The notes under the pieces were generated by a model that worked only from the letters and a program-made list of their open reading frames with translations, did not search any database and was not told the DNA's origin. This document shows, one piece after another, positions 3,288-25,154 of a stretch of 32,000 nt of DNA; the first letter of the stretch is position 1, and each line of letters opens with the position of its first letter. This stretch comes from Candidatus Saccharimonadota bacterium. Its GTDB lineage: Bacteria; Patescibacteriota; Saccharimonadia; Saccharimonadales; UBA4665. The position numbers were made by a program, and so were the translations under genes. The stretch is from assembly GCA_002952755.1 (NCBI GenBank), contig CP025011.1, positions 1,418,270 to 1,450,269 on the forward strand, given 5' to 3'.

Positions 3288-4409
3288 ATGAATATACTAC
3301 GCAAAACCATCGTCGCACTAGCAGGGACATTTCTTGTACCGCTTTTATTTAGTTTCGGATTCGCCTGGAGCGTACATCAGGTCTTTGGCAACTCTACCGA
3401 TATAAAACAAGCATTGAGAAGTAGCGGGTTGTATACCTCAGTTGTGGGTGAGGCATTGGATCAATCTCAAAGACAGCAACATAGCAATACTTCCAGTAGT
3501 GATGTGCCAGTAGGCGATCCGCACATCCGAGCCGCTATCCAATCTGCCTTTCCACCGTCCTACTTGCAGTCACAAACCGAAAATACCATCGACGCCACCT
3601 ATGCCTGGATCCAGGGGAAGACACCGACACTGCAGTTCCGCATCGATATGTCCGGCGCCAAAGCTAAACTAGCCGATGGGGTCGGGCAATACGCCCAAGC
3701 ACGTGTCGCTTCGCTGCCGCGCTGTGCTGCAACTACCACTCCAAGCGGCGACATCGACCCGTTTACCGCCACCTGCGTACCAAAGGGGGTAGACGATGCG
3801 GCCATTGCCTCGGCCTCCCGTAACAACATCTTGCAAGGTGATTTTCTCAAGGACAGCACTATCACCGCCGACACCATTAAGACTAAAGACGGCATCACGC
3901 TGAATCAACAGCTTAAAAACGTACCGAAAGCGTACCAGAGGAGTGTCTCCGGCCTCTATATCAGCGGGGTCATCACGCTTTGTTTGCTTGTGGCTGTGGC
4001 ATGTTTAAGCATAGATTGGCGTCATGGCGTGCGGCGGGCCGGCATCTTTATGGTTGTTATGGGAGCCTTCAGCGCAGCCAGCGCTTGGCTGGCCAGCTTT
4101 ATTGTGCACAAAGTCGCAGTAAAGGTTGCAGAAAAACAAACCGCCGATACGCCGTTGCAAACGCAAATCCTCCATGTAGTACAGACACTGACTAACAACG
4201 TGCGAACCTGGTGGATGGCATATAGTATTACACTCCTCGTAGCGGGGACCGTTGCCATCCTGATTTCAGTACTGGTGAAACCGCGCTTAGATCAGAGTCA
4301 GGAGGTTAATCTCCCAAGTGGCGTCGATGGTATTGAGGGGCTCCCGCAGGAAAACCTGCCAGCTGCCGTGCCCTCCAAAACTGCTCATCCTCGCAGGCCG
4401 CAGAAATAA
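3288..4409 (+). CDS. integral membrane protein, unknown function
   Basis: 373 aa. It has an N-terminal TM helix (IVALAGTFLVPLLFSFGFAW), a ~190-aa hydrophilic middle, three further hydrophobic helices (e.g. GLYISGVITLCLLVAVACL, IFMVVMGAFSAASAWLASFIV, AYSITLLVAGTVAILISVLV) and a Pro/charged tail. Confidence 0.7.
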   Translation: MNILRKTIVALAGTFLVPLLFSFGFAWSVHQVFGNSTDIKQALRSSGLYTSVVGEALDQSQRQQHSNTSSSDVPVGDPHIRAAIQSAFPPSYLQSQTENTIDATYAWIQGKTPTLQFRIDMSGAKAKLADGVGQYAQARVASLPRCAATTTPSGDIDPFTATCVPKGVDDAAIASASRNNILQGDFLKDSTITADTIKTKDGITLNQQLKNVPKAYQRSVSGLYISGVITLCLLVAVACLSIDWRHGVRRAGIFMVVMGAFSAASAWLASFIVHKVAVKVAEKQTADTPLQTQILHVVQTLTNNVRTWWMAYSITLLVAGTVAILISVLVKPRLDQSQEVNLPSGVDGIEGLPQENLPAAVPSKTAHPRRPQK

Positions 4410-4512
4410 GTAAGGAAGTTTACGAGCCTCGGGCGAGTTTTTCACTCCTGGTTAAAGATAGGTAACTAGATACAGGATGGGGGTCCCGTATGACGGGAGG
4501 GCAAAAGGTTAC

Positions 4513-5115
4513 TCAAATTGCTAACGAATAGTTGTCGAGCGGCATTCCATTAAAATCAGGGGGTCCTAAATCTTTGATAAGCGAGAAGTGATCGACATGC
4601 TCGATCAGCTTAACCTTCGTATCGCCTGTCAGACGAGTAGCATCATCAAGATTAATTGGCCGGGTATACCGTGCAAGCGTGCAATGGGTGATGCCTGGTG
4701 GTTGTTTAGTACCTTCCGGCAGCGAAATTCGCTCAAGCAAGCGGACACGGATTGCATTCAACGCGGACGTATCGCTGGCCTTTATAATGATCGCCCCCTG
4801 ACTCACAATGAGCTGATCGAACATAATATCGAATGGCGGGCAGGTGGACAGCACCTCGTGCACAATCCGGTTATACTTCTGATACCACTGCGCAAAATGT
4901 TCGGCCCGCGTTTTGTCTCTATACTCCGCATCACAGATAATTTCCATAACCGTCACATGGAGGGCGGGAGGTTGCTGCAGCCAAATAGCGTCGCCAAAAG
5001 TCTGCACCAACTTTTCTTGTAGCGCTGCCACATATTGCGTTGCTGCTTTGCTCAATAAGATTGCTATATTATGCTCATCTTTAGAGTGTACTAGAGGGCT
5101 AGGAATTGTTAGCAT
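4513..5115 (-). CDS. 2H phosphoesterase / LigT-like (2'-5' RNA ligase family) protein
   Basis: Two H-x-T-x motifs (ALHVTVME and ITHCTLAR) lie about 90 aa apart, the hallmark of the 2H superfamily. ATG 5115 (MLTIPSP) is preferred over the TTG at 5142 used by the track. Confidence 0.7.
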   Translation of the reverse strand: MLTIPSPLVHSKDEHNIAILLSKAATQYVAALQEKLVQTFGDAIWLQQPPALHVTVMEIICDAEYRDKTRAEHFAQWYQKYNRIVHEVLSTCPPFDIMFDQLIVSQGAIIIKASDTSALNAIRVRLLERISLPEGTKQPPGITHCTLARYTRPINLDDATRLTGDTKVKLIEHVDHFSLIKDLGPPDFNGMPLDNYSLAI

Positions 5116-10588: not shown

Positions 10589-11074
10589 ATGGCGCGACGC
10601 ACAAGTGGCGACGACGACCTGCTCATGCAAGAGGACGAATTAACCGCCGCTTTTTTGGGTGATGATGAAGCAATTGCTCCAGCAGATACCCAGAGCGCAG
10701 GCGCTGGACCAACGGCCGCAAATGATGATTGGGACGAAAGCGAAGACCTGCCAGGGCAACTCGCAGTAGACGTATACGAAACCAGAGAAAAACTGGTTGT
10801 AAAAGCCCGGACTGCCGGTGTAAATAAGAGTGACCTTGACGTTAGTATTTCTGACAACACACTCAGTATTCGCGGCACATTATCTGCCGGCAACGAAGAC
10901 GGAGTAGAGAACTACTTTGTTCAGGAATGCTACTGGGGCGAATTCTCTCGCAGCATTGCGCTGCCGGTGCCAGTTAAGGAAGAAGAGATCGAAGCTGTTC
11001 TTAAAGACGGCGTCCTTACCATCAGCTTTGCAAAAGTAAAACAGGATACGGTAAAAAAGATCCAGGTCCTCTAA
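10589..11074 (+). CDS. Hsp20/alpha-crystallin family small heat-shock protein
   Basis: The alpha-crystallin domain pattern is LAVDVYETREKLVVKARTAGVNKSDLDVSISDNTLSIRG...FSRSIALPVPVKEEEIEAVLKDGVLTISFAK. GGAGGG lies 8 nt upstream of the ATG. Confidence 0.9.
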   Translation: MARRTSGDDDLLMQEDELTAAFLGDDEAIAPADTQSAGAGPTAANDDWDESEDLPGQLAVDVYETREKLVVKARTAGVNKSDLDVSISDNTLSIRGTLSAGNEDGVENYFVQECYWGEFSRSIALPVPVKEEEIEAVLKDGVLTISFAKVKQDTVKKIQVL

Positions 11075-11426: not shown

Positions 11427-11879
11427 TTACGGTCCTGCCGGCGCTCCGGTGCCCGTATTGTTCACTTTGTCGAAGACAAACTTAACAACAACTTGTGCCA
11501 GAGCAACGATAACGAGGCCGATTACCGCATACACAATAGTGTTTTTGGCGCTGGTAATATTGCCTGAATCGCCCCCGGAAGTAATGTACTTAAAGCCGCC
11601 AAGCACGATCATGATAACGGCAATAATACCGACTACGATAGAGAAAATGTTTATAACCGTAGTAACAATATTCTGGACTTTGGTCGCCGATGATTGGTCG
11701 GCACTCGTATCAGCAGTACAAGTCTGGCCATTACCAGCAGTGCTCAACCCGGTGCCTTGAGATAAGCAGTCGCCGATAGTAGGAGCTGCATGCACCGCAA
11801 CAGGCACTAGCGCAGGCACAATGCTAAGCGCAAGAGTGGCGACGATAGCCGCGAAATGCTTACGAACGGTTTGTAACAT
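11427..11879 (-). CDS. T4SS pilin-like protein (TrbC/VirB2-type helical hairpin), paralog 1
   Basis: 150 aa. The signal peptide ends VAVHA|AP and is followed by a short Ser/Thr/Gly-rich ectodomain with 2 Cys. Then comes IFSIVVGIIAVIMIVLGGFKYITSGGDSGNITSAKNTIVYAVIGLVIVALAQVVV (helix-loop-helix). AAGGA lies 10 nt upstream of the ATG. Confidence 0.8.
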   Translation of the reverse strand: MLQTVRKHFAAIVATLALSIVPALVPVAVHAAPTIGDCLSQGTGLSTAGNGQTCTADTSADQSSATKVQNIVTTVINIFSIVVGIIAVIMIVLGGFKYITSGGDSGNITSAKNTIVYAVIGLVIVALAQVVVKFVFDKVNNTGTGAPAGP

Positions 11880-11959: not shown

Positions 11960-12409
11960 TTAGGATCTTGCTTTGGCCTTAACTGGGGGCGGGGTAGCAG
12001 TCGAGGTAGTGACGACATACTTAACGAGAATTTGAGCAAAGAACACCAATACCAAGCCAATAATTGCGTACGTAATAGTTTGCTTAGCCTTGGAAACAGC
12101 ATTGGCGTCACCCCCAGAAGTTATATAACGAAACCCGCCAACCATCATCATAATCACCGCAACAATACCGACTATGATACTAAGTATGTTCACTGCCGAA
12201 GCAATCGTATTGTCCAGGGATGGGCCGCTACTTACACACACTGCGCCAGTACCCGGATTTGTCCAGGTACCCCCCGAACCAATACAAGCCTGCTGCTTAG
12301 CAGCATCAGTAGAAGTGTCGGCCGAAGCTGGAGCGGGTAACAGCCAGTTGCTCGCAACGACGCTAATAAGAGTTACGCTTATGAGCAATATACGCCTGAA
12401 TATATACAT
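11960..12409 (-). CDS. T4SS pilin-like protein, paralog 2
   Basis: 149 aa. The signal peptide ends APASA|DT and the ectodomain has 2 Cys. The hairpin is ILSIIVGIVAVIMMMVGGFRYITSGGDANAVSKAKQTITYAIIGLVLVFFAQILV, followed by a Pro/Lys tail. Confidence 0.8.
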   Translation of the reverse strand: MYIFRRILLISVTLISVVASNWLLPAPASADTSTDAAKQQACIGSGGTWTNPGTGAVCVSSGPSLDNTIASAVNILSIIVGIVAVIMMMVGGFRYITSGGDANAVSKAKQTITYAIIGLVLVFFAQILVKYVVTTSTATPPPVKAKARS

Positions 12410-12419
12410 GTTGCCTCCA

Positions 12420-12833
12420 TTATTTCACGATATTAACAGCTAGGGCAAGAATTGCTTGGGCAAGAAGAATAACGAGCAGCCCAATGCCTGCAGCAATCAT
12501 GGTACGCCGGGCGTTCGCCGCTTTATTGGGATCGCCAGCGGCCGTAACATAATTAAAACCACCGACTATCATTAAAATTACCGCGGCGATACCTGAGACA
12601 GTCGACAGTATGAGCCCAACCTTGTACAAAATGCCGTTGGTGCCGCCAATAGGATTTTGCCCACTCGTCGTACAAACCGTTGAAGGGTTTTTGCCGGGCG
12701 TATTAGTCACACCTGTGTTCGAGCAGGCGTTTTGAAATGGATTAAAAGCTGCTGCTGAATGTGGTAAGAAAACAAAGACGATTCCAAACGCCAGTACAAA
12801 AACCGTAACCAGCAAGCGCGTATGTCGCAACAT
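12420..12833 (-). CDS. T4SS pilin-like protein, paralog 3
   Basis: 137 aa. The signal peptide ends HSAAA|FN and the ectodomain has 2 Cys. The hairpin is ILSTVSGIAAVILMIVGGFNYVTAAGDPNKAANARRTMIAAGIGLLVILLAQAIL. Confidence 0.8.
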   Translation of the reverse strand: MLRHTRLLVTVFVLAFGIVFVFLPHSAAAFNPFQNACSNTGVTNTPGKNPSTVCTTSGQNPIGGTNGILYKVGLILSTVSGIAAVILMIVGGFNYVTAAGDPNKAANARRTMIAAGIGLLVILLAQAILALAVNIVK

Positions 12834-12846
12834 ATTATATTACCTC

Positions 12847-13542
12847 CTATATATGACCAAGTGCATAGTTAACAATCGAGAAGGCAAGCATGGATACAAC
12901 CAGTCCAATAGCAGCATATATAATCGTGTTTTTCGTTTTTGCCATAGTATTAGGGTCGCCATTGGAAGTAACGTAGCGCAATCCGGCGATAATCAGCACT
13001 AATAACGCCACGCTGCCAAATAGCCCAATCACAATATTATAGAGGGAGAGAAGTGTAGTATTTGATGCCGCTGCATTAGGCAGGCTACTTAGGTCTACCC
13101 CGCTTGAGGTTTTGCCTGCACCTCCAGTTCCACCAAGACTCTCGCCAAGGAACCGTACGGCAGCAGCAGCGACGACGGTGATTCCTAGACCCACGAGGGA
13201 ATTAATAATGGTGCCGAGGGCATGCTTGGCTTTTTCGGGTTCACCCTGCGCGGTTATATATTGAAAGCCGGCATACACGATAAACCCGATGGCAACCAGA
13301 GCGCCGACACGGAGCAAAATATCGACAACACCAAGACCGACCAAACCAATCGAGCTAAGATCAAGATTACCGGTTGTATGATCAATAAAATGCGGGTCCA
13401 CCGAACAAAGACCGCTCGAATCTATTGTTACGTACTTCGCCCTGTCGAGATACTCAAACCACGAAGGGATCCCAAAGAAATTTCCTGGCTCCGGGCAGGG
13501 GCTCGCTCCAGCGGCAAAATGAGTCAATATATCCAAAAACAT
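12847..13542 (-). CDS. tandem double T4SS pilin-like protein (two hairpin modules in one chain), paralog 4
   Basis: 231 aa. Module a is LLRVGALVAIGFIVYAGFQYITAQGEPEKAKHALGTIINSLVGLGITVVAAAAV. Module b is IGLFGSVALLVLIIAGLRYVTSNGDPNTMAKTKNTIIYAAIGLVVSMLAFSIV. They are joined by a Gly/Ser linker. There is no obvious N-terminal signal peptide (MFLDILTHFAAGASPCPEPG...). Confidence 0.75.
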   Translation of the reverse strand: MFLDILTHFAAGASPCPEPGNFFGIPSWFEYLDRAKYVTIDSSGLCSVDPHFIDHTTGNLDLSSIGLVGLGVVDILLRVGALVAIGFIVYAGFQYITAQGEPEKAKHALGTIINSLVGLGITVVAAAAVRFLGESLGGTGGAGKTSSGVDLSSLPNAAASNTTLLSLYNIVIGLFGSVALLVLIIAGLRYVTSNGDPNTMAKTKNTIIYAAIGLVVSMLAFSIVNYALGHI

Positions 13543-13570: not shown

Positions 13571-14185
13571 TTATAGGATACCTCCGGGTGTAATCCACTG
13601 CAGGAAGGCCCACAAAAATCCAAAGGCTATAATCGCTATAACCGCATTAATAATACGCTGCTGAGCCGCTGCTGTGACATTCGGCTGGTCTGCCGAGGTG
13701 CTGTACTGAATACCCGCGACAATAATAGAAATGACAGCGGCAAGTACTACCACGACAGCCAATGTATTAATAATGGGATTTAGGTATTGGCGAACGATGC
13801 TGCACTGCTGCTGCGGGTCGAGTTCTGTTGGGCAATTGTTCCCACCTTTTGCGGCATTGTCAGTGCTGCCCGACGCGGTCTGAGCCTGGACGACATTCTT
13901 GGCTTGAAAAACGTCCCCGGAACAGTCGGATTGCGATACCCAGCCTTTCGCGGCATCCGATAGGGTGTAACATTTACCGGCTGCAAAGATGCCTTTACTC
14001 GGAGCTTTACCGTCCACGGGAAGGGTAGGAGTATCTGCGCATTGTGTAGTTATGCCAGCTAGTGCGTCAAAACATAATGCAGGACTGGCAGCGTGCACAA
14101 TGGCTGCCGGAAATACTGCCGACGGTACCGCGACTGCCGCACTGAAGAGGACTACTTGAATTATGTGTTTTACGCGCTGCAGCAT
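13571..14185 (-). CDS. T4SS pilin-like protein with enlarged 6-Cys ectodomain, paralog 5 (first gene of the operon)
   Basis: 204 aa. The signal peptide ends AIVHA|AS and is followed by a ~105-aa ectodomain with 6 Cys. The hairpin is INTLAVVVVLAAVISIIVAGIQYSTSADQPNVTAAAQQRIINAVIAIIAFGFLWAFL. Confidence 0.75.
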   Translation of the reverse strand: MLQRVKHIIQVVLFSAAVAVPSAVFPAAIVHAASPALCFDALAGITTQCADTPTLPVDGKAPSKGIFAAGKCYTLSDAAKGWVSQSDCSGDVFQAKNVVQAQTASGSTDNAAKGGNNCPTELDPQQQCSIVRQYLNPIINTLAVVVVLAAVISIIVAGIQYSTSADQPNVTAAAQQRIINAVIAIIAFGFLWAFLQWITPGGIL

Positions 14186-14469: not shown

Positions 14470-14904
14470 ATGCGTCCTCGTCGATTAATCGTCATAGCTT
14501 CGCTGGCAACCATCATTTTAGTGGCCATTCCTTTGATTTTTATTCATAAGGGCGATGGTTATCGTGGTGTTTGTGACTCGCTACTAAAAGATATTCAAAA
14601 AAACGATGCTGCCAGCAGCTACAGTTTGCTTTCTGATACAGCCAAACGCACTGACTCGCTTTCTAGCTGGACGGGTAAAGTAAAGTTGCTCTACAACGTC
14701 TACTATAAAAGTACAGTTACGCCCGTAAAAAGTGTCGATTTAACCACCACTGTCAATAAAAAGAAGGGGCCGACGCGTATCGAGTACGTCTATACGGTTA
14801 CTAATCAATTTGCCACCTCCGATGCACTTTGCTACGCCACGAAGCCTTCAGGCTATAAAGTAGATTCTTTCTCGAGCGCAGTGAGACAGGAGGGCACTCA
14901 ATGA
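14470..14904 (+). CDS. small N-terminally membrane-anchored protein, unknown (possibly NTF2/DUF4878-like)
   Basis: 144 aa. The TM anchor is LIVIASLATIILVAIPLIFI. The following LLKDIQKNDAASSYSLLSDTAKRTDSLSSW pattern is typical of small anchored NTF2-like proteins (weak). The stop overlaps the next start. Confidence 0.65.
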   Translation: MRPRRLIVIASLATIILVAIPLIFIHKGDGYRGVCDSLLKDIQKNDAASSYSLLSDTAKRTDSLSSWTGKVKLLYNVYYKSTVTPVKSVDLTTTVNKKKGPTRIEYVYTVTNQFATSDALCYATKPSGYKVDSFSSAVRQEGTQ

Positions 14905-17900
14905 GGCGCCCTAAAGTTGCGAAAATTGGGCACTCGTTTCAGCAAGCCACTATCATTTTCGCCGCCCTAGTTGGAATCATTCTGCCTGCGACCGCACCTT
15001 TTCTCAAAACCAGCCATGCAGATGAGGTTGGAACGTCTTTTACTACTATAAATGGAGGCATATTCAAGGGTCCCGGCGGTGGAGTACCTATCGCTCATGC
15101 TATTGCATGTAAGGGGGGCATGATACCGGGACAGACGCTTGCGGCCACTAGTATAGATACGTCACTCGGCCGAAATCCGGCTGGCGATTCTGGCAACACC
15201 TTCAATGATGTCTATAATTCTACCGGTATGTATGCTGGCTTGCCCCGGCAGACAAACATCTTCGGATATCTGGGTCTTCCTGCTGCTGGCCGCGACCCTG
15301 GTGCCATACCCGAAGCAACAGCCACTGCATGGACATCATATATTTATGACCACTTTAACCAGCGAGTTACCACCCTAGGCCTTTTTCAAGGAGTAAATGG
15401 GCCTGGCCTGGACCCATGCGGATCAGGGCCAAACCGTCAATCAGATACGCCGCATCTTGTCATGATTCCAGTCGCTGACGATACTTGGGTCGCGTCGCAG
15501 TACAGCAATATTATTGCACAGGGAGGAGTTGGACAGCCAGCCCTGATTATCTTTCATCAAACCGGGCTGTCTCCTGCGGGTAACGCTGTTGGCTCCCTCT
15601 CATATTGGTACCCTGATTCCAGTAAAGGTATAGGCATGGCCTACAAGGGGCTGGACACTCAGGGTAAGCCTATCAACGGCGGCCCTCAGCAGAACGTTAT
15701 CGTTGAGGGCGTGTCCACCTCATCTAATCCTGTTGCTACAGGTAATGTCTCTAACGCTGAGTGGGTAGACGTGTCGACTATTAAAATACAGGTGAGCTAC
15801 AATGGCGGCGCACCTATTACAGAAACGTACATCAACCCTTCGTGGGATAATCATAGTTTCTATTTCCTGGCGAGCACTCCAAGCCCGACTCGTCAGGCCC
15901 TTATAGGCGCGGCCAAACAAGCCGATCCGTTCAGTAACGCCGCGCAAAACCAGGTACCTTTTATATGGATTCCGGACGCCGGCTTTACCGAACATAACGG
16001 CGAAGGTATTCTTAACTTATCCTACGATCGGCTCAGTCAGAGCCCGGGACTTGGTGACCTAAATCATAACATCGCCGGGTACACGTTTGCCAATCCGGCG
16101 TTTTATGATTACTCCCCCGGAAACCCGCCTGTGCCTGTTGGCCATGATGGAAAAAATCCGGCCCTTCCGGCAGGTCAGGTTATTACCAATAGCAGCCATC
16201 TTAATGGCGATATCTGGTTCTATGGCAGCAAAGCAAGCAATGCCTTTGTTACTGCTTGGACCAAAGGCAATGGCAACGAGCAGAACTATATTGGAGTCTA
16301 CACCTTTGACAATGCATCAAAGTTTTACGTGCACAGTGCCAAAGACTGTTCTGCGCTTGGCCAGATTAATTTAGGCACAACTATTGATAATATTACGCCG
16401 AACACAGAATTTCCGATACCGAAGTGGACCCTAGAGCCGCCGGGCCAATCCTGTCAGCCCCCTGCATATGGCAGCATCACCAAAGCATATGCAATTATTG
16501 ATGACCAAAAATTCACGGCTATCTCGGGCATTATAGCCGGCGCTGCTGCCAATTCGAATGGAAATAACCAGCAGTTGATATGTGATATCGGATGGAATCC
16601 TCTCACATGGCTGATTTGCCCGATCGCCCAAGGCGCCATCTCTCTGGCTGGTACGTTCGATACTGCCATCAACGACATGCTCAATATAAGCGTCAATACC
16701 TATCTAGACGAAAGTAAGCCCGGATCGGCAGGGGCAGATTTTTATGCAGCCTGGAACAGTTTCCGCGTTATCTCCATGGCGCTCATTGTAATTGCTGGGT
16801 TGATAATGGTGATGTCGCAAGCGCTGGGTGCCGAACTACTGAATGCTTACACCATCAAAAAAATGCTGCCTCGATTGCTCATGGCCGTCGTGTTCATTGC
16901 TGCTTCATGGCAACTACTTAAAGCGGCGGTAACTGCATCAGACGTGGTCGGCTACGGGACACGTTATCTTATCTACAAGCCATTTAGTACGGGGTTAGGT
17001 GCCGCCCACATTGGCGCAGGCACATCCGACGTTCTAGGAGTGTTAGGGGGTGCGGCTGTTGTTGGCCTAGGTATTTTTGGCATCTTGAGCTTTGCACTTA
17101 CTGGTCTACTTGCGTCACTGGTTGGATTCGTGTTGCTTACGTTCCGGGAAATGGTCGTTTTATTTGCGATTGCAATATCTCCTGTCCCCATCGCACTCTC
17201 TATCTTGCCGAATACCCGTAAGGGCTGGAAGATTTGGGGGGATACTCTGAGCGGCGCACTCCTGATGTTCCCGATTGTGGCTGGCTTTATCGCGATAGGC
17301 CATGTCTTTGCTCAAGTCGCCGCAAAAGTAAATGCCGGCGTGATCGGCCAACTCATATTTATCATCGCCTACTTTGCACCATACTTCCTTATTCCTTTAG
17401 CCTTCCGTCTGGCTGGCGGCCTGGTAGCCACAGTAGGTGGAGTAGTGAACGACCGCAGCAAGGGTGCCTTTGACCGTCTTAAGAATTATCGCTCCAACAA
17501 ATTCAAAACCAACATGCAAAAGGTTGCTGAAGGACGGCGCTTTAACGAGCTTGGTCAATTCCAAAGTAATAACCTGCTTGCACGGACAGCTAACCGGGGT
17601 ATTCGCGGGCTCAACCGGGGTATTAGTGGTTTTAATGATACAACTGAGGTCGCCGGTGCTTTCGGTGCAGCAGAAGCAAAATTCGGTTTCTTAACGAATC
17701 GGGGAATACGCCAAGCTGCCCTAAGCCAACATCGTGACATGGTTGGCGCCAAATACGCTCAGACCGGACGGGCGCAGGCGACCAAGGAAGACGACCTACT
17801 GCACCAAGCACGAACGTTCGGCAGCGAAGAAGAAGCGCGTGCCGGCCTCGCTGCCCGCTTCCGAAATATGAATTACGACGTCAACACTGACGAAGGACGC

Positions 17901-18872
17901 CGCAACATGGAAGCAGCCCTTTCTGCCGCCCGGGCAGCAGGCGGATACAGCAGGGCATACCAACGCTACTCATTGCGTCGCCTTGCAGCTACAGGAACTG
18001 GCTATGGTGACGTGGGCGACATGCTGCGTGCAGTAAGTGACGTGGCCGGAGATAATCGCGCCGAAGCTTCTGCCTTGCTCGGCGAATTAAATGCTGTTTC
18101 TGGCAATGTAGGCCGTCACGACCTCAAGCTTGGGTACGGTACTCAAATGCGCTTGTACGACCGGCTTCAGGCAGCCGGCCACCTGACCGAGGAAGAAGTT
18201 GACGATGCGGTGTATACAGCCGATAAAGACCTCGATAGCGTCAGCCGTATTCGCGACAAAAAGGTCTCCGTCGAAAACCTGAGCAAATCAACGGCACGGG
18301 TGTTTAGGCGCCTGGAGGTTCAGCGCGATACTGCCACTGACCCTGTTGTCATACAACAAGCTCGCGACGAACTGGATCGAGCAACGGGCCTTATCAACAA
18401 GGCGGAATCAGCCTTTGCATATGGATCTACGACGAATGTACAGGCTACTAATGATAACGTCGGCCGTGCGACCAGCGGCGCAAATACCGGCCTGGTAGTC
18501 GAAAACGCCGCGTATAACCCCGCGCTTCCGCCCTCACCGACAAATCCGCAAACTATATACGTTCCCGCCACTGGCCGGCGACGTGTGCAAATGGAGGCTA
18601 ACCCTGTGGAAACAAAGATTAACCCAACAACTGACCGACCTGAAATTACCTACGAGATCGCTCGCTATCCCGCAGGACATGCGTTGGCGGGGCAGGAAAT
18701 TATCGACGAATTTGGTACTCCAACACTATATAGAGATCCTGACACTGGCCGCCCCGTTCTCAGACAAAATCCAGCTACGAATGCTGTCACACAGCGTTCT
18801 GCGGAAAACCAACGTATCTACGGCGTAGGCACGGGCACGGGCGACCCTCAAAACAACGGTCTTATAACCTAA
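14901..18872 (+). CDS. giant VirB6/TrbL/PrgH-like polytopic T4SS membrane protein with large extracytoplasmic N-domain and charged C-domain
   Basis: 1323 aa with an ATGA overlap with the upstream gene. The signal peptide is ..FLKTSHA|DE and is followed by a ~560-aa Cys-containing exodomain. Six or seven TM helices lie around aa 620-880 (FRVISMALIVIAGLIMVM, LLMAVVFIAASWQLL, MVVLFAIAISPVPIALSILP, LLMFPIVAGFIAIGHVF, LIFIIAYFAPYFLIPLAF), then a ~440-aa Arg/Asp/Ala-rich tail. The family call rests on architecture and context, not alignment. Confidence 0.7.
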   Translation: MRRPKVAKIGHSFQQATIIFAALVGIILPATAPFLKTSHADEVGTSFTTINGGIFKGPGGGVPIAHAIACKGGMIPGQTLAATSIDTSLGRNPAGDSGNTFNDVYNSTGMYAGLPRQTNIFGYLGLPAAGRDPGAIPEATATAWTSYIYDHFNQRVTTLGLFQGVNGPGLDPCGSGPNRQSDTPHLVMIPVADDTWVASQYSNIIAQGGVGQPALIIFHQTGLSPAGNAVGSLSYWYPDSSKGIGMAYKGLDTQGKPINGGPQQNVIVEGVSTSSNPVATGNVSNAEWVDVSTIKIQVSYNGGAPITETYINPSWDNHSFYFLASTPSPTRQALIGAAKQADPFSNAAQNQVPFIWIPDAGFTEHNGEGILNLSYDRLSQSPGLGDLNHNIAGYTFANPAFYDYSPGNPPVPVGHDGKNPALPAGQVITNSSHLNGDIWFYGSKASNAFVTAWTKGNGNEQNYIGVYTFDNASKFYVHSAKDCSALGQINLGTTIDNITPNTEFPIPKWTLEPPGQSCQPPAYGSITKAYAIIDDQKFTAISGIIAGAAANSNGNNQQLICDIGWNPLTWLICPIAQGAISLAGTFDTAINDMLNISVNTYLDESKPGSAGADFYAAWNSFRVISMALIVIAGLIMVMSQALGAELLNAYTIKKMLPRLLMAVVFIAASWQLLKAAVTASDVVGYGTRYLIYKPFSTGLGAAHIGAGTSDVLGVLGGAAVVGLGIFGILSFALTGLLASLVGFVLLTFREMVVLFAIAISPVPIALSILPNTRKGWKIWGDTLSGALLMFPIVAGFIAIGHVFAQVAAKVNAGVIGQLIFIIAYFAPYFLIPLAFRLAGGLVATVGGVVNDRSKGAFDRLKNYRSNKFKTNMQKVAEGRRFNELGQFQSNNLLARTANRGIRGLNRGISGFNDTTEVAGAFGAAEAKFGFLTNRGIRQAALSQHRDMVGAKYAQTGRAQATKEDDLLHQARTFGSEEEARAGLAARFRNMNYDVNTDEGRRNMEAALSAARAAGGYSRAYQRYSLRRLAATGTGYGDVGDMLRAVSDVAGDNRAEASALLGELNAVSGNVGRHDLKLGYGTQMRLYDRLQAAGHLTEEEVDDAVYTADKDLDSVSRIRDKKVSVENLSKSTARVFRRLEVQRDTATDPVVIQQARDELDRATGLINKAESAFAYGSTTNVQATNDNVGRATSGANTGLVVENAAYNPALPPSPTNPQTIYVPATGRRRVQMEANPVETKINPTTDRPEITYEIARYPAGHALAGQEIIDEFGTPTLYRDPDTGRPVLRQNPATNAVTQRSAENQRIYGVGTGTGDPQNNGLIT

Positions 18873-18950
18873 TTTACGACCTTAAGATGGCAGAGATAAC
18901 GCCGCTCATCTACCCATACTGGCTCATATAGTAATTACATAAGCACTATA

Positions 18951-18980
18951 TTGACATTATACCAATCATGTGTTTATAAT
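18951..18980 (+). promoter_or_regulatory. near-consensus sigma-70-type promoter inside the T4SS operon
   Basis: TTGACA (18951..18956), an 18-nt spacer, then TATAAT (18975..18980), 36 nt upstream of ATG 19016, within the only sizeable gap (143 bp) of the operon. Confidence 0.5.
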
Positions 18981-19015
18981 TTAGATATGAAAAATTCACT
19001 CTTAGGCTGGTCGAC

Positions 19016-20893
19016 ATGGCTTTTCCAATAGCACTAGTAGGGGAATTTCCTGAACTGGCACATCGAAATCCGAATGTGATGATCGAGCCACGAGTGGCCG
19101 ATGTACCCGGCAATCCATTGACCGTCCAAGACCGAACCGCAAACATACATGCTGTCCACGACGAAATGAGCAACTTGCGCCGACAGCTTATAGATATGAA
19201 TCGGGCTGAAGGAAATCTATTACCTGGCGGGAATGTCGGCAACTTAACAGCAGGCATAGACCCCCGCGGCCGAAGTAGCACGCGGGCGGCATATAGCGCT
19301 AACCTGCGACGAGATCGTCTTACGCGACAACACGAAGCCATAGACGACCGTTTACACTCGCTATCCGACACTCAAGAAAGGTTACGAGATCTCGTAAATA
19401 CGGGAGGGAATCTCGATGACCATATACCCGGTATCGGGGACCGCATCGAAGCGGCACAAAACGTCGAAGACGCCTCCGAGCGCATGGTTGACGGCGCCGA
19501 AGCCGCAGAGCAGCGTGCACGAGCTGTCGAAAACTACCGCTACCACACTATGGAAGCACGCATGGCTTTTGAAGCGGCACACCCAGAACCGCATGCAGAT
19601 GCCGACCGGCAACTAGTGCTCCGGCTCAGAATGAACAGCCTCATTGGCTGCGCGATTAACGCGTCACTTGGTGACCCTAATGAGCAGCGACTAGGTGGCC
19701 GTGGCAATAGGGAAGCAGCCCTGGGGCGAGAAGAGCACTCGAGACAACTTGCATATGCTATTGCCGCGCGTGACGAGTTGGAAGGTTTATCGTTTTTGAC
19801 CAGCGATACATTCGAGCCGCTCATTACGAGGCACATAATTGCAAGACAGCGTTCAGCCAACCTTGGTTTTGAGGTTGATATACGATTAAGCAAAACTCGT
19901 ATTGGCGATGAGCTTGAGCAAAATGACGTCAATGTCGTAAACCATACACAAGATCTCCGTATGGAAACTATTGAGGGGATGCAAATCCATTCTACTGGTC
20001 GTGCCAACGAGCTGGCTGACGCCATTATTGCGGACTACCGTAACGAAGAACGCCTTGCACACCGCCCTGATCAGAGCCTCAACACGTACGACAGAGTCTA
20101 CACTCGGGATGGCGGCATACTAACTCATCATGGCGTAGTCAGGTATGATGACGGAAGTCAGGCCCGATACAATGGTACGAACTGGGTAAGGAGAAACTCT
20201 GACGGTAATGTATGGACCGGGCGGCCGACAGCAAACTTCAACGTGCCGGGCTTTTATACTGACGGATCTTTGGATACCTTACCGCTCAACGATTTCTATG
20301 ATAGAGTGCTCGAGAGGCGGGATCGGGCTGAAGAAGTCCGAGGTCCGAACGCAACTCGCGAGGCCTATTTTATGGACCGGGCTTTTACTGAAAGATGTAC
20401 GGCTGAGATTGCAAACATAAACACTCTCACCGACCAACTTCGCGGTCAAGTCACTGACTTAGACACTTACAGGACTGAGTGGCAAAATGAAATGGCACAA
20501 ATTCAAGGACGCTACGCTCCCGGTACCCCGCCAGCTAACTATGCGCAAGCCGACTGGAGTCGTTGGAGCAAGCTACATGACGCTATTACGCTTAATCAAG
20601 CCAACACCAATCTACTCCATCAGCAAATCCATGATGCTGAAGCACCTATAGGTGACATCCGGATCGCTGAGAACGTCACACGCTACTGGATGGCACGTTA
20701 CGAAGTAAACTATCGTAATCCAAGGGACACATCGAACAATCGCACGATGAGTCGTCGCGGCCACGTATTTCTAGATAATGTCACTATAAACGGTGTCCAT
20801 GGTAACTGGGAGATAGCCATTGGCGGTAGTGGATATCATACCGACCCTAACACCGGTGTAGCCACTTATTACCATCCGGATGGCACCGTTTAG
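19016..20893 (+). CDS. 625-aa soluble, highly charged protein of unknown function
   Basis: Long ORF with no hydrophobic segment, rich in Arg/Asp/Glu/Asn, and with predicted helical stretches (e.g. ERLRDLVNTGGNLDD...AEQRARAVENYRYHTMEARMAFEAAH). No motif recognised. Confidence 0.7.
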   Translation: MAFPIALVGEFPELAHRNPNVMIEPRVADVPGNPLTVQDRTANIHAVHDEMSNLRRQLIDMNRAEGNLLPGGNVGNLTAGIDPRGRSSTRAAYSANLRRDRLTRQHEAIDDRLHSLSDTQERLRDLVNTGGNLDDHIPGIGDRIEAAQNVEDASERMVDGAEAAEQRARAVENYRYHTMEARMAFEAAHPEPHADADRQLVLRLRMNSLIGCAINASLGDPNEQRLGGRGNREAALGREEHSRQLAYAIAARDELEGLSFLTSDTFEPLITRHIIARQRSANLGFEVDIRLSKTRIGDELEQNDVNVVNHTQDLRMETIEGMQIHSTGRANELADAIIADYRNEERLAHRPDQSLNTYDRVYTRDGGILTHHGVVRYDDGSQARYNGTNWVRRNSDGNVWTGRPTANFNVPGFYTDGSLDTLPLNDFYDRVLERRDRAEEVRGPNATREAYFMDRAFTERCTAEIANINTLTDQLRGQVTDLDTYRTEWQNEMAQIQGRYAPGTPPANYAQADWSRWSKLHDAITLNQANTNLLHQQIHDAEAPIGDIRIAENVTRYWMARYEVNYRNPRDTSNNRTMSRRGHVFLDNVTINGVHGNWEIAIGGSGYHTDPNTGVATYYHPDGTV

Positions 20894-20958
20894 CTAAGCC
20901 TGTAGTCTTTTTAATAACACTACAAGCAGCCCTTACTCTCGCGTATACTATGTAAGTA

Positions 20959-22227
20959 ATGTCTACCTACAAGGTCATTCAGGATGTGGAGGCCGAGGAC
21001 AAGCTCATTGGGCCGTTGTCGCTTCGGCAGTTTATCTATGCCGGCATTTCGGCTATCTGCTTGTATCTTTGCTATTTCTTAAGCACGCATCATGCGGCGT
21101 TCTTGACGATCGTCTTGATCCCGGTTGCTTTTATATCGGGCTTTTTTGCATTCCCTTGGGGGAGGGACCAGCCGACCGAACTCTGGGCGCTGGCCAAGAT
21201 CCGCTTTTTTTTGAAACCCCGTCGCAGAGTCTGGGATCAGGATGGCGTCAAGGAACTGGTGACCATTACAGCGCCTAAGCATGTACAGGTTGATTACACC
21301 AACGGCCTTTCGCAAGACGAAGTGCACAGCCGGCTGCAGGCGCTGGCCGCCACCATTGATAGCCGTGGTTGGGCTATTAAGAATGCCAACCTCACTGTGT
21401 CTACCCAGCCAACGCTCGTCATGGGCGATCCGCAGTCCGACCGTCTGGTGAATCCCAGCTCCTTACCCCAACCTGTATCCGACGTGCAGATAAGCGCTGC
21501 CGACGACATTCTGGACGAAAAGAACAATGCAGCAGCGTCACGTGTCGACAGTATGATTTCGGCCAGCTCAAAAGCGCACCGTGATAAACTACTGGAAGAG
21601 ATGCGCAAAAAGGATGCGCCAACCCTGCCGCCGCCGCCAAAGTCCGCAGCTACAGCAGCGGCTCCACAGAAGCCAAACGACTACTGGTTCCTCAATCAGC
21701 CCGCCCAGCCTGCCGGTATTCCTAATAATATGGTTACTTTTAACACCCAGGTTGTCACCCCGGCCACCCCCAGTACATCCGCGCCTATCTCCGATCCTGT
21801 CATAACTTCAGCGGTGACTCCTGTACAAAGTACTACGAGCACTCCACCCCAGGACGAAGCGAGTATCGTCGCCGAACTCGATGCTAAAAAACAGGAATTA
21901 CCGACAACCGCCTATTACAATCACTTGCACACCATTCAACCGCTTTCTGCCCAGCAGCAGGCTAGTACACCTCCAGCGCAATCACCAGACATACCTACCG
22001 CTCAACCGGTAGCGCCACAGTACAAATACAACGCCGTGACACCCACAACACCGAGCCCCGGTCCCGTTGCTCCGCCGGCCGCTGCAGCCGTAGCAGCGCC
22101 GGTGACACCCATTCAGCAGGCTGCTATACTACAGCTATCCAGGAATGACGATCTGAATGTGGCCACCTTGGCCCGCGAAGCCGAACGATCGGCACCACAA
22201 GACGAAGTCGTCATTAAACTGCATTAA
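20959..22227 (+). CDS. PrgI-family (VirB3-like) T4SS membrane protein with long Pro/Ala/Thr/Gln-rich C-terminal extension
   Basis: The N-terminus YKVIQDVEAEDKLIGPLSLRQFIYAGISAICLYLCYF plus a second TM (FLTIVLIPVAFISGFFAFPW) is the PrgI-family signature. It sits immediately upstream of VirB4, as in Gram-positive T4SSs. aa ~215-385 are low complexity. Confidence 0.75.
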   Translation: MSTYKVIQDVEAEDKLIGPLSLRQFIYAGISAICLYLCYFLSTHHAAFLTIVLIPVAFISGFFAFPWGRDQPTELWALAKIRFFLKPRRRVWDQDGVKELVTITAPKHVQVDYTNGLSQDEVHSRLQALAATIDSRGWAIKNANLTVSTQPTLVMGDPQSDRLVNPSSLPQPVSDVQISAADDILDEKNNAAASRVDSMISASSKAHRDKLLEEMRKKDAPTLPPPPKSAATAAAPQKPNDYWFLNQPAQPAGIPNNMVTFNTQVVTPATPSTSAPISDPVITSAVTPVQSTTSTPPQDEASIVAELDAKKQELPTTAYYNHLHTIQPLSAQQQASTPPAQSPDIPTAQPVAPQYKYNAVTPTTPSPGPVAPPAAAAVAAPVTPIQQAAILQLSRNDDLNVATLAREAERSAPQDEVVIKLH

Positions 22228-22236
22228 AAGAGGGAT

Positions 22237-23250
22237 ATGAATCCGAACGCACCAAACCAACCATATTCAGGTGGACAAACTCAGCCGGGCATGCCTTATG
22301 TGTCGCAGCAAGCTGCCTCGATGGCACCCGCTGGGGGCCCGCAGAACGTAGCCGGTGCTCATCCTGTTATTGCCAGCGATCTCATGCACCAGGCAGCTGG
22401 CATGGCAGCGTCGGTCGGCGCTCCTGATGCTTCCGCTGCGCCACAACCAACAAATGTAGTCGCCGGCGGTCCCGCCGCAGCCACTGGGGCAGACGGCAAG
22501 CCTTTAGTAGCTACACCACACACCAATCCTAACAGCACCCAAAATACGCTGCTAATTGCCGAGATCCGCGACGGTATTGTGATCATGAACGACGGCTCAT
22601 TCCGATCTGTTGTGATGGTCAAATCAGTCAACTTCGACCTGATGAGTCCCCAGGAGCAGGAATCAGTAGAGTATTCGTATCAAGGATTCTTAAACTCGCT
22701 CTATTTCCCAATTCAAATCTTCATCCGCTCGCAAAAAGTGGACTTACAACCATACGTCGAGAAACTCGACAAAATCCGCACCGAGCATGACAACATGCTC
22801 CTTGCCATGCTCATGGAAGATTACATTACCTATATCGACCAGTTGTCGCAGCAAACCAACATTATGGACAAAAAATTCTACATAGTTATTCCGTACTTTC
22901 CGCATGTTGATGTCCAAAAAGCACTCACTCAAAGCAAGAACTTTTTTACCGGCTTTTTGAACCTATTTAATACCAAAGAACAGCACGTAGTAGTGAATGA
23001 AGCCGATCTCGAAAAGGCCAAAACCGAGCTTCGTAACCGCGTCCAGGCCGTCCTCCAAGGTGCGTTACAATGTGGTATTCAAGGCTTGCCGCTCGACACC
23101 CAGGAGCTTATCGAACTATTCTACGACACCTATAACCCAGACACGGCTACCCGCCAACAACTAAAGAATTTTGGAAGTCTGACCGCCGATATTATCACTA
23201 AAGGGCAAGGGAATGCCCCTCAGGCACACTTACAACGGGAGCTCAACTAA
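22237..23250 (+). CDS. VirB4 N-terminal-domain-like protein (apparent detached N-domain of VirB4) with Pro/Ala/Gly/Gln-rich leader
   Basis: After a ~100-aa low-complexity stretch comes LLIAEIRDGIVIMNDGSFRSVVMVKSVNFDLMSPQEQESVEYSYQGFLNSLYFPIQIFIRSQKVD. This matches the N-terminal block of Gram-positive VirB4 proteins as I recall them (for example Tn916 Orf16). The stop overlaps the next ATG (TAATG). AGAGGG lies upstream of the ATG. Confidence 0.65.
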   Translation: MNPNAPNQPYSGGQTQPGMPYVSQQAASMAPAGGPQNVAGAHPVIASDLMHQAAGMAASVGAPDASAAPQPTNVVAGGPAAATGADGKPLVATPHTNPNSTQNTLLIAEIRDGIVIMNDGSFRSVVMVKSVNFDLMSPQEQESVEYSYQGFLNSLYFPIQIFIRSQKVDLQPYVEKLDKIRTEHDNMLLAMLMEDYITYIDQLSQQTNIMDKKFYIVIPYFPHVDVQKALTQSKNFFTGFLNLFNTKEQHVVVNEADLEKAKTELRNRVQAVLQGALQCGIQGLPLDTQELIELFYDTYNPDTATRQQLKNFGSLTADIITKGQGNAPQAHLQRELN

Positions 23251-25154
23251 TGGCACGTAAAAAACAACTTGACCCTGTTGCATTGGCACAGGCCCAGCAG
23301 CAGCGCGAACAGCAAGAAGTGGCTGCCGCTTTCCAAAAGGGTGTCACGGCGCTGCGTGATTTTATCGCGCCAAGCTCCCTGGAATTTAATAGTAGTTATT
23401 TTCACCTCGGAACCCGTATGGCACGCACCTATTATGTATACGGCTACCCGCGCCAACTATACACCGGTTGGATGAGCAGCATGGTGAACCTCGATGAAGT
23501 AATTGATATTTCACTATTTATTTACCCGGTCGAAAGCCAGGTCGTGCTCGACAACTTGCGTAAAAAAGTCACCCAGCTGGAAGCCGGCATCCAGATCGAC
23601 TCCGAAAAAGGTCGGGTACGCGACCCGCAAAAACAGGCCGCCATCCTCGACGCCGAAGAAATGCGTGATAAGTTGCAGGTGGGCGAAGAGCGCTTCTTCC
23701 GCTTTGGTTTCTACTTTACCGTCTACGCCGGCAGTCTCGAGGAACTCGAATTTATCAGCCACAAGGTGGAATCGATGCTCGGCCAGCAACTGGTCTTTTC
23801 CAAACCGGCATCATCACAGCAAGAGCAGGGACTCAACAGTACTGTGCCGCAATTTAGTGACCAGCTACAGATCCGCCGCAACATGAGCACCGGGGCGATT
23901 AGCACTAGCTTCCCATTCACCAGCGCCGACTTAAGCCAAGACAACGGTATTCTATATGGCATTAATATGCACAATTCCGGCCTGGTGATCTTCGACCGCT
24001 TTAGCCTGGAGAATGGTAACTCGGTCGTCTTCGCCAAGTCTGGTGCCGGTAAATCGTTTACCGTCAAACTTGAGGCGTTGCGCAGCATGATGATGGGCAC
24101 CGAAATCTTCATCATCGACCCCGAAAATGAGTACGAACGGATGTGCGATGCCGTTGCTGGTTCCTATGTGCGACTCAGTCTTAACTCGGCTACGCGTATC
24201 AACCCGTTCGATCTCCCCAGGGTAGTCGACACCGAAGAGGCCGACAATGCTTTGCGCAGCAACCTCATCACCTTGCACGGTTTGTTCCGTTTAATGATGG
24301 GCGGCGCCCAAGCGCAGATGCTTGGCGGACAGCAAGTGCTGGCTCCCGCTTTGTCTCCGGTAGAGGAATCTGATCTGGATGCGGCACTCATCGAAACTTA
24401 CGCCCGCGCCGGCATCACCAACGATCCGCTCACGCATCAAGGCTACCCGCCAACGATTGCCGACCTCTACGACACACTCCTGCACATGGGCGGCACCGGC
24501 CCGCAATTAGCTCAGCGCCTGCGCAAATATACCACTGGAACATTCGCTGGCATTTTCTCGCAGCAAAGCAACATCGACATTAACAACCCGCTCGTCGTCT
24601 TTAACATCCGCGACCTCGAGGACGAGTTGCGACCAGTGGCCATGTACATCGTACTTAATTACATCTGGAACAAGACCAAAACCGACCGGCGCAAGCGTAT
24701 CCTGATCGTGGATGAGGCCTGGCAGCTCATGAAGTACGAAGATTCGGCGAACTTCCTGTTTAGCCTCGCGAAACGCGCTCGCAAATACAACCTTGGTATT
24801 ACCACCGTCACTCAAGACGTCGAAGACTTTATGGGTTCGCGCATGGGTCGCGCTGTTGTCGCTAACGCCAGCATGCAGTTCCTGCTGAAGCAATCCCCAA
24901 CTGCAGTCGACGTGCTGTCTGATGTTTTCAAGCTCACCAGCGAAGAGAAAAAACGTTTGAGCCAATTCCCGGTAGGGCAAGGCCTCTTCTTTGCCGGCCA
25001 AAACCACGTCCACATCCAGGTGGTAGCCAGCCCGACTGAAACGACACTCATTACGACTAACCCAACGCAGGTACAGCAAATCCAGTCGGGCGCGATGGAT
25101 CAAGTGCAAGGCACGATCGACCTTGCCAATCAGCTAACGCCCGGGAGCTTATAA
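23250..25154 (+). CDS. virB4: VirB4-family T4SS ATPase (middle and ATPase domains)
   Basis: LRDFIAPSSLEFNSSYFHLGTRMARTYYVYGYPRQLYTGWMSSM is the VirB4 middle block. Walker A is VFAKSGAGKSFTVK (about 24036) and Walker B is RILIVDEAWQL (about 24700). The C-terminal blocks TTVTQDVEDF and LLKQSP follow. Confidence 0.92.
   Translation: MARKKQLDPVALAQAQQQREQQEVAAAFQKGVTALRDFIAPSSLEFNSSYFHLGTRMARTYYVYGYPRQLYTGWMSSMVNLDEVIDISLFIYPVESQVVLDNLRKKVTQLEAGIQIDSEKGRVRDPQKQAAILDAEEMRDKLQVGEERFFRFGFYFTVYAGSLEELEFISHKVESMLGQQLVFSKPASSQQEQGLNSTVPQFSDQLQIRRNMSTGAISTSFPFTSADLSQDNGILYGINMHNSGLVIFDRFSLENGNSVVFAKSGAGKSFTVKLEALRSMMMGTEIFIIDPENEYERMCDAVAGSYVRLSLNSATRINPFDLPRVVDTEEADNALRSNLITLHGLFRLMMGGAQAQMLGGQQVLAPALSPVEESDLDAALIETYARAGITNDPLTHQGYPPTIADLYDTLLHMGGTGPQLAQRLRKYTTGTFAGIFSQQSNIDINNPLVVFNIRDLEDELRPVAMYIVLNYIWNKTKTDRRKRILIVDEAWQLMKYEDSANFLFSLAKRARKYNLGITTVTQDVEDFMGSRMGRAVVANASMQFLLKQSPTAVDVLSDVFKLTSEEKKRLSQFPVGQGLFFAGQNHVHIQVVASPTETTLITTNPTQVQQIQSGAMDQVQGTIDLANQLTPGSL

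Follow-up and report, generated by a model that had tools for sequence, protein, structure and literature searches.

Predicted fusion of two adjacent pilin classes in the type IV secretion pilin array of a Saccharimonadales genome

The DNA analysed here, referred to as the window, is a stretch of 32 000 nucleotides from Candidatus Saccharimonadota bacterium (GenBank assembly GCA_002952755.1, contig CP025011.1, positions 1 418 270 to 1 450 269), and represents the last 32 kb of a single-contig genome of 1.45 Mb that is 98.5% complete. Five minus-strand genes between positions 11427 and 14185 all matched the Pfam family PF18895 (T4SS_pilin) in a profile search. The gene for pilin class 1 (13571–14185, 204 aa), encoding a signal peptide and a Cys-rich ectodomain, lies directly upstream of the open reading frame (ORF) considered here (12847–13542, 231 aa plus stop), a double pilin in which two modules, A and B, represent classes 2 and 3. 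Pilin classes 4, 5 and 6 are encoded at 12420–12833, 11960–12409 and 11427–11879 respectively, on the same strand and each with a classic signal peptide.

A divergent operon of type IV secretion system (T4SS) genes, recognized from Pfam matches and gene positions, occupies 14470–25154 on the plus strand. It starts with genes for proteins of 144, 1323 and 625 aa; the 1323-aa protein stands in the VirB6-like gene position and returned no match in the Pfam search. A PrgI/VirB3-like protein (20959–22227; PF12666 PrgI, 2.4e-12) and a VirB4-like ATPase (23250–25154; PF19044 TraG P-loop, 2.7e-27) are also encoded on the plus strand, and the gene for a 337-aa protein is listed between them. The pilin array adjoins these T4SS genes (VirB4, PrgI/VirB3 and, by position, VirB6-like) and belongs to the T4SS that Saccharimonadales (Patescibacteria) carry on the chromosome. 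The named relatives are metagenome-assembled genomes (MAGs) of Candidatus Saccharimonadales, Saccharibacteria and Microsaccharimonas.

The dnaA gene is located at 2.1–2.6 kb of the same contig (G000:C1:2089–2574), a YidC gene at 3888–4595 and a RecF-like gene at window positions 30622–31680. Counted across the ends of the single contig, dnaA lies ∼19–39 kb from the T4SS locus. As dnaA is near the start of the contig, the T4SS locus is near the origin across the circular junction. This fits the placement published for Patescibacteria, for which origin-proximal T4SS loci are described in PMC12102498. An HSP20 small heat-shock gene (10589–11074, plus strand) is convergent with the pilin array at the array's distal end, and the same gene adjoins the array in the relatives L007 (6020–6505) and L008, an instance of conserved synteny.

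The whole 231-aa protein scored 75.4 bits (E 3.7e-21) with PF18895, for which the cut-off is 26.6 bits. A six-frame search of the genome resolved this match into separate stretches at aa 160–226 (50.6 bits) and aa 72–130 (35.7 bits), and each of the two modules therefore passed the cut-off alone. The KD19 hydropathy profile contained four transmembrane (TM) peaks, at residues 67–85, 111–129, 170–188 and 206–224. AlphaFold2 placed four long helices at 62–97, 102–136, 161–192 and 197–230, with a low-confidence, disordered linker at 137–160, in a model of only moderate confidence (pLDDT 67.5, pTM 0.52). The helices make up two hairpins, each with a polar/basic loop. The original prediction of a single chain containing two pilin hairpins and four TM helices was thus confirmed by the profile, the hydropathy and the model.

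From its N-terminus the protein begins with a short segment, MFLDILTHFAAGASP (aa 1–15, 13498–13542), of the 'h-h-x-x-h-x-FAA' type, which is not a classic signal peptide and was modelled with pLDDT <50. A Cys-bracketed ectodomain, C16 ... FFGIPSWFEYL ... C46, follows (aa 16–62, 13357–13497), and leads into hairpin A (class 2; aa 63–136, 13135–13356), which consists of TM1, the loop QGEPEKAK and TM2. A polar Gly/Ser/Thr linker, GTGGAGKTSSGVDLSSLPNAAASN (aa 137–160, 13063–13134), also with pLDDT <50, joins it to hairpin B (class 3; aa 161–231, 12850–13062), which consists of TM3, the loop NGDPNTMAKTK and TM4. All of these segments are read from the minus strand. The N-terminal domain was modelled as small beta elements and a helix (pLDDT 62–73). 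In alignment A1 F22, Y31 and C46 were invariant and C16 and W28 were at least 90% conserved. The Cys pair that had been noticed in the non-hydrophobic N-terminal region of ∼60 aa is conserved: all 72 of the 72 A orthologues compared have one Cys before the W anchor and one after it.

PF04956 (VirB2/TrbC) matched weakly, at 21.9 bits (E 2.1e-4), below its cut-off of 27.9 bits, while paralogues p1 and p2 scored 28.2 and 27.4 bits respectively. A Foldseek search of the PDB with the moderate-confidence model gave nothing at E ≤0.001; helical-bundle matches (F-BAR and V-ATPase c, the latter at E ∼0.9) were not significant. A profile search against PDB sequences returned nothing relevant. As no significant structural match was obtained, the VirB2-like fold is assigned from sequence profiles.

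The ORF had been described as internally duplicated, and in this respect the description needs revision. Hairpins A and B were 27% identical, less than the identity of A to paralogue p3 (38%) or of B to paralogue p2 (41%); a recent internal duplication is therefore rejected in favour of the fusion of two old paralogues. When the six modules of the window were compared with the six pilin genes of L007, the best-match matrix was diagonal, each module pairing with a single gene and the order being preserved, with hairpin A matching gene 2 and hairpin B gene 3. This ordered correspondence identifies the modules of the fused ORF, A as class 2 and B as class 3. Both classes are ancient, and most relatives encode them in separate adjacent genes. 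On these sequence comparisons we interpret ORF 12847–13542 as a genuine fusion of classes 2 and 3 of a six-class VirB2-like pilin array.

Sequence relatives were of two kinds, fused forms of ∼225 aa and forms of 130–136 aa which end exactly at the '...GG' preceding the linker. In the latter case a PF18895 gene of 94–97 aa is the next on the contig. In-frame A/B splits consist of a stop, zero to seven codons and a start, as in the junctions GGAGGT-TAG-GTT-ATG and GGAGGT-TAA-GCC-ATG. The GGAGGT at these junctions indicates that the last Gly-Gly codons of A also serve as the ribosome-binding site of B. In the window, the linker GTGGAGKTSSGVDLSSLPNAAASN stands where a separate B gene would have the stop that precedes it, its start and its short N-terminal motif, and in this linker the (I/V)D.S.LP motif of B is retained.

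The frequency of the fusion was assessed in several samples. In the order sample, 380 of 400 genomes contained a match at E ≤1e-10. Among the best 150 of these 380 matches, 11 were stop-free fusions, from at least nine families, ∼53 spanned both modules via one or two in-frame stops (TAA/TAG) and ∼80 were of module A only. Forty of the 'A-only' loci were fetched, and a B gene of 88–121 aa directly followed A in all 40, out of frame in 38 of them, mostly by ATGA overlap. A B gene of ∼98 aa directly after A was found in every split locus examined, so that in each of these the two genes are neighbours and their translation is coupled. Programmed read-through or an alternative genetic code at the A–B stop was considered and rejected because the in-frame stops were mostly TAA/TAG and not TGA; the lack of a conserved A/B frame in the 'A-only' loci likewise speaks against programmed read-through.

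Within the window's family, 16 of 300 other genomes carried the fused form. Among 20 other genomes of the same genus four were fused (56–68% identity) and 13 split, which gives a tally for the genus of five fused and 13 split. When 1.84 billion cluster representatives (50% identity) were searched with phmmer, 33 matches were obtained at E ≤1e-30, and ∼50 of the best 150 matches were full-length fusions in a single stretch, of 205–285 aa. Strong matches were nearly absent outside the order in a sample of 400 genomes of the phylum. Fused forms are a minority and separate A and B genes are the majority state.

Some matches carried unexpected taxonomic labels. L087 (DATIJU010000008.1), a MAG labelled 'Bacillota bacterium', encodes a fused A–B pilin 66% identical to that of the window; this is probably a Saccharimonadales genome that was assigned to the wrong taxon. 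L106 (MEWX01000022.1, 'Candidatus Adlerbacteria'), a contig of 5.3 kb binned to another class of Patescibacteria, contains a pilin with an A-type N-terminal domain and an in-frame split B. A stop-free double-hairpin match was also found in another family of the phylum (G508:C35:2553–2993). The L106 and G508 matches could reflect rare spread outside Saccharimonadales or mis-binning.

To trace the fused state, a maximum-likelihood tree of the A module was used (85 rows, 118 columns, unrooted), drawn from a locus sample that was enriched for fused forms, so that its proportions are not population frequencies. The fused state required 13 changes on this tree, at least eight of them forced by well-supported branches, and a single origin of fusion was recovered in none of the bootstrap trees. 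As reconstructed from these alignments, the tree shows that A and B have been joined or separated many times. The clade containing the window (support 98/95) has seven fused and four split members, and the split pair L009/P0010 is nested within its fused forms (support 100/96). On the unrooted tree this nesting could mean that a fused gene was split again once, or that fusion took place several times in parallel.

The linkers of 22 fused forms were compared. They were 16–43 aa long, differed in length and sequence among lineages, and were polar in every case; the '(L/I)P' motif of B was kept in most. Remnants of the N-terminal motif of B were visible in two of them, 'SQFATS' in L025 and 'GEFAAK' in L044. 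This comparison shows that after fusion a polar linker takes the place of the short N-terminal motif of B.

The N-terminus of the A–B protein was then compared with those of its paralogues. The best 10-residue hydropathy (KD10) within the first 32 aa was 1.40, with no K/R in the first eight residues, against 2.69–3.07 and two K/R each in the four other paralogues, in agreement with the original prediction that an evident signal peptide is lacking. An upstream start or missed signal sequence, for which a check had been proposed, was rejected: an in-frame stop lies six codons upstream of the ATG and leaves no room for a longer N-terminus, and the sole nearby ATG is out of frame. In several split loci, among them L009, L054, L073 and L078, A could begin further upstream and would then gain an 'ARR/RTRR' n-region. 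The codons concerned also encode, in a different frame, the conserved '...PGGIL*' end of the class-1 gene, and on account of the overlap the true start of A is ambiguous in those loci, which is not so for the window. A lipoprotein was also rejected: the lipobox criterion was [LVI][ASTVI][GAS]-C after a signal peptide, and the window has G-A-S-P-C, with Pro at −1 and without a basic n-region. The context before the Cys was inconsistent among A orthologues (FAADC, FAQTC and AANC). Inspection of the sequence found no G/F-x-x-x-E after a short basic leader, and a class III (prepilin-peptidase) signal was rejected.

In 32 of 85 A orthologues (∼38%) the Cys ... FFGxPxWYxYL ... Cys domain is preceded by a classic Sec signal peptide. 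The remaining 53 are leaderless and start 'M-x-h-h-x-x-h-x-FAA-x-C', as in the window. The signal-peptide state of A changed at least 14 times on the tree, independently of fusion. A classic signal peptide is very rare among the separate B proteins, a KD10 of at least 2.4, the hydropathy level of a signal peptide, being reached in only four of 81, each with a hydrophobic stretch of no more than 10 residues. The pattern '[FLIVMY]-A-[QAE]' occurred within residues 3–18 of 46 of the 81 B proteins, whereas shuffled sequences would give 6.6. Class-B and leaderless class-A pilins thus have in common a short motif at the N-terminus, 'M-x(1-8)-h-h-x-x-h-A-[Q/A/E]', which B no longer has once it is fused; the motif may act in targeting, processing or assembly, independently of Sec.

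It had been left unclear how the Cys-containing region would reach the outside of the cell. That question is largely, but not wholly, settled by the orthologues. The presence of the same Cys domain behind a classic signal peptide in so many of them argues that the domain lies outside the cell. The genome encodes YidC, signal peptidase I (SPase I), VKOR and a DsbA-like thioredoxin, and together with the invariant Cys pair these point to an extracytoplasmic domain for which the leader is dispensable. The N-terminal tail of 65–66 aa is acidic (eight D/E, two K/R), and five K+R fall in the two short loops, against two in the 37-aa linker and two in the 66-aa tail, a distribution that fits the positive-inside rule and a predicted N-out/C-out topology.

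Translocation of N-terminal tails in the absence of a signal peptide has precedents in the 100-residue tail of E. coli ProW and in the Pf3 coat protein, which is inserted via YidC. The window's tail resembles these in being acidic, poor in K/R and followed by a TM helix that could act as a reverse signal-anchor, and YidC is encoded in this genome; the Pf3 tail is shorter than the 60-aa tail of the window, which is predicted to be disulfide-bonded. In the reading of export that we infer to be the best, the acidic tail would cross the membrane without a Sec signal peptide, TM1 serving as reverse signal-anchor with help from YidC/Sec. The protein would insert with four TM helices and both termini outside, so that the loops QGEPEKAK and NGDPNTMAKTK would be on the cytoplasmic side, or would point into the lumen once a pilus is assembled, and the FFGxPxWYxYL ectodomain and the linker would lie outside the cell. 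The disulfide of the ectodomain would be made by the VKOR/DsbA-like system of the genome.

A tether of ∼24 residues connects the C-terminal end of A with the N-terminal end of B. Such a tether has been tolerated repeatedly, and the fusion would hard-wire the A–B pair. The recurrent tether and the decay of the N-terminal motif of B suggest that A and B are neighbours in equal numbers, and the two classes probably occupy neighbouring positions, in a 1 : 1 ratio, in the assembled structure. This adjacency is deduced from the logic of the fusion. A gene fusion of A and B, with termini outside and the two modules as a 1 : 1 neighbour pair, is the best explanation overall and we regard it as likely.

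Longer concatenations of the same hairpin were encountered among the relatives. P0028, P0030, P0037, P0050 and others are poly-pilins, single polypeptides of 344–1147 aa with one N-terminal signal peptide and four to ∼12 near-identical PF18895 hairpins separated by Gly/Ser/Thr linkers. There are six hairpins in the 552 aa of P0028 and ∼12 in the 1147 aa of P0050; P0023 (329 aa) has three. No published description of poly-pilins was found.

Several other explanations were weighed against this reading. With respect to export, the first 12–15 residues might constitute an ultra-short cleavable Sec-type leader, with a truncated h-region and 'FAA' as c-region, which SPase I would cut immediately ahead of the first Cys; export would in that case follow the route of the paralogues and would not involve translocation of an uncleaved tail. 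The signal-peptide orthologues have an AxA site two to seven residues before the first Cys, the 'FAA/FAQ' of the leaderless forms is at the same place, the two states interconvert at least 14 times and SPase I is encoded in the genome. However, the hydrophobic stretch is shorter than 10 residues and is interrupted by D, T and H, a basic n-region is missing, the KD10 of 1.40 compares with 2.7–3.1 for the real signal peptides of the array, and in B proteins the same motif is distant from any Cys and has no AxA around it. We consider such a leader conceivable, though doubtful. An inverted or non-pilin arrangement, in which the N-terminal domain is cytoplasmic and the protein is a four-TM membrane component, for example of an assembly platform, that never enters a filament, would account for the missing signal peptide; the poly-pilins with up to ∼12 hairpins are difficult to reconcile with extraction of subunits one by one, and PMC12857230 speaks only of the 'potential to elaborate conjugative pili' for the Patescibacteria T4SS. 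This arrangement is improbable. The evidence against it bears on the topology: 38% of orthologues have a classic signal peptide ahead of the domain, its Cys pair is invariant, and the positive-inside count favours cytoplasmic loops.

An error of assembly or sequencing, or a recent read-through without function, in a genome that truly has two genes, would agree with the existence of two genes in most relatives, often in the same frame and one stop apart. Against this, the linker contains neither a start codon nor the N-terminal motif of B and resembles the linkers of P0002–P0004, the ORF is uninterrupted in four genomes of the same genus and twelve others of the family, in independent assemblies, as well as in ∼50 cluster representatives among the best 150 matches, and both modules remain conserved. 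The occurrence of uninterrupted fused orthologues in so many independent assemblies bears out the fusion, and an artefact is very hard to credit. Relatives in which the modules are always separate genes with their own signal peptides had been proposed as contrary evidence; what was found is that fused forms recur and that few separate B genes reach even the hydropathy of a signal peptide. The suggestion that a covalent dimer nucleates, caps or anchors the filament, a special role that monomeric pilins lack, was also considered. Class A has a conserved, class-specific ectodomain and the A–B arrangement is conserved across the order, compatible with a minor or tip subunit, and these loci lack a VirB5-like gene (PMC12857230). 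The fused state is nevertheless a patchy minority, even within the genus, and since it flips among close relatives the covalent linkage itself probably does not give rise to a cap or nucleator. A special role, if there is one, would be that of classes A and B as such and not of the fused state, and such a role for the dimer is judged unlikely. A broader proposal is offered tentatively, as less probable than not being so: the structure would be a hetero-oligomer of fixed stoichiometry with classes 2 and 3 as obligate neighbours, and not a homopolymer of interchangeable subunits; covalent concatenation of two to ∼12 hairpins would be a general, hitherto undescribed building mode of this family; and leaderless A and B would be exported independently of a Sec signal via the 'h-h-x-x-h-A-Q/A' motif.

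The preferred reading, an A–B fusion with outside termini and a neighbour pair, can be set beside known systems. The VirB2/TrbC/TraA conjugative pilins of Gram-negative T4SS (T-pilus, F-pilus) share the two-helix hydrophobic hairpin, the short basic loop and termini on the same side, but they are single hairpins, and the window's host is monoderm and its protein has no long cleaved leader. The proteolipids of V/A-type ATPase rotor rings are an unrelated family with an unrelated function in which an oligomerizing two-TM hairpin has, as in A–B and the poly-pilins, been fused repeatedly into multi-hairpin chains, including four-TM c subunits and the 13-hairpin subunit K of Methanopyrus kandleri. 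In cyclic pilins (RP4 TrbC, the VirB2 T-pilin and TrhA of the H-pilus; PMC12037004) the two termini of the hairpin are near each other at the outer face, where a covalent bond can link them. That join is post-translational and within one subunit, whereas in the window it is genetic and connects the C-terminus of one class, A, with the N-terminus of another, B.

VirB2 arrays of Patescibacteria have been treated by Quinonero-Coronel et al. (2025, PMC12102498), and arrays of two to 11 pilin genes are published (PMC12102498, PMC10633639 and PMC12857230). An essential six-pilin array lies in the T4SS cluster SEML1_0006–0019 of Southlakia epibionticum ML1 (Wang et al., 2023, PMC10633639), and a requirement of the array for epibiotic growth is reported there for S. 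epibionticum ML1 only. The Saccharibacteria six-pilin array agrees with that of the window in its PF18895 modules, six in order, its divergence from the T4SS operon and its position near the origin, and differs in that modules 2 and 3 are one polypeptide in the window. Fused pilins, leaderless classes and A–B pairing are not mentioned in the passages of PMC10633639, PMC12102498 and PMC12857230 searched by keyword, and a literature search for fused or tandem T4SS pilins found nothing. No Patescibacteria T4SS filament is shown in the literature examined, including PMC12857230.

The overall picture of the locus, a six-class T4SS pilin array, is already published and is unchanged by the A–B fusion. 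In the sole Saccharibacterium that has been tested genetically, epibiotic life depends on the T4SS and its pilin array, both of which are essential for it. The recurrent natural fusion of A and B acts as a 'Rosetta-stone' constraint on this structure, bearing on which classes are neighbours, in which ratio, and which termini share a side. The mixture of signal-peptide and leaderless orthologues offers a clean system for the leaderless crossing of a membrane by a disulfide-bonded tail of 60 aa, and the fused form may be of practical use, for instance in structural studies, where both classes could be tagged in one construct.
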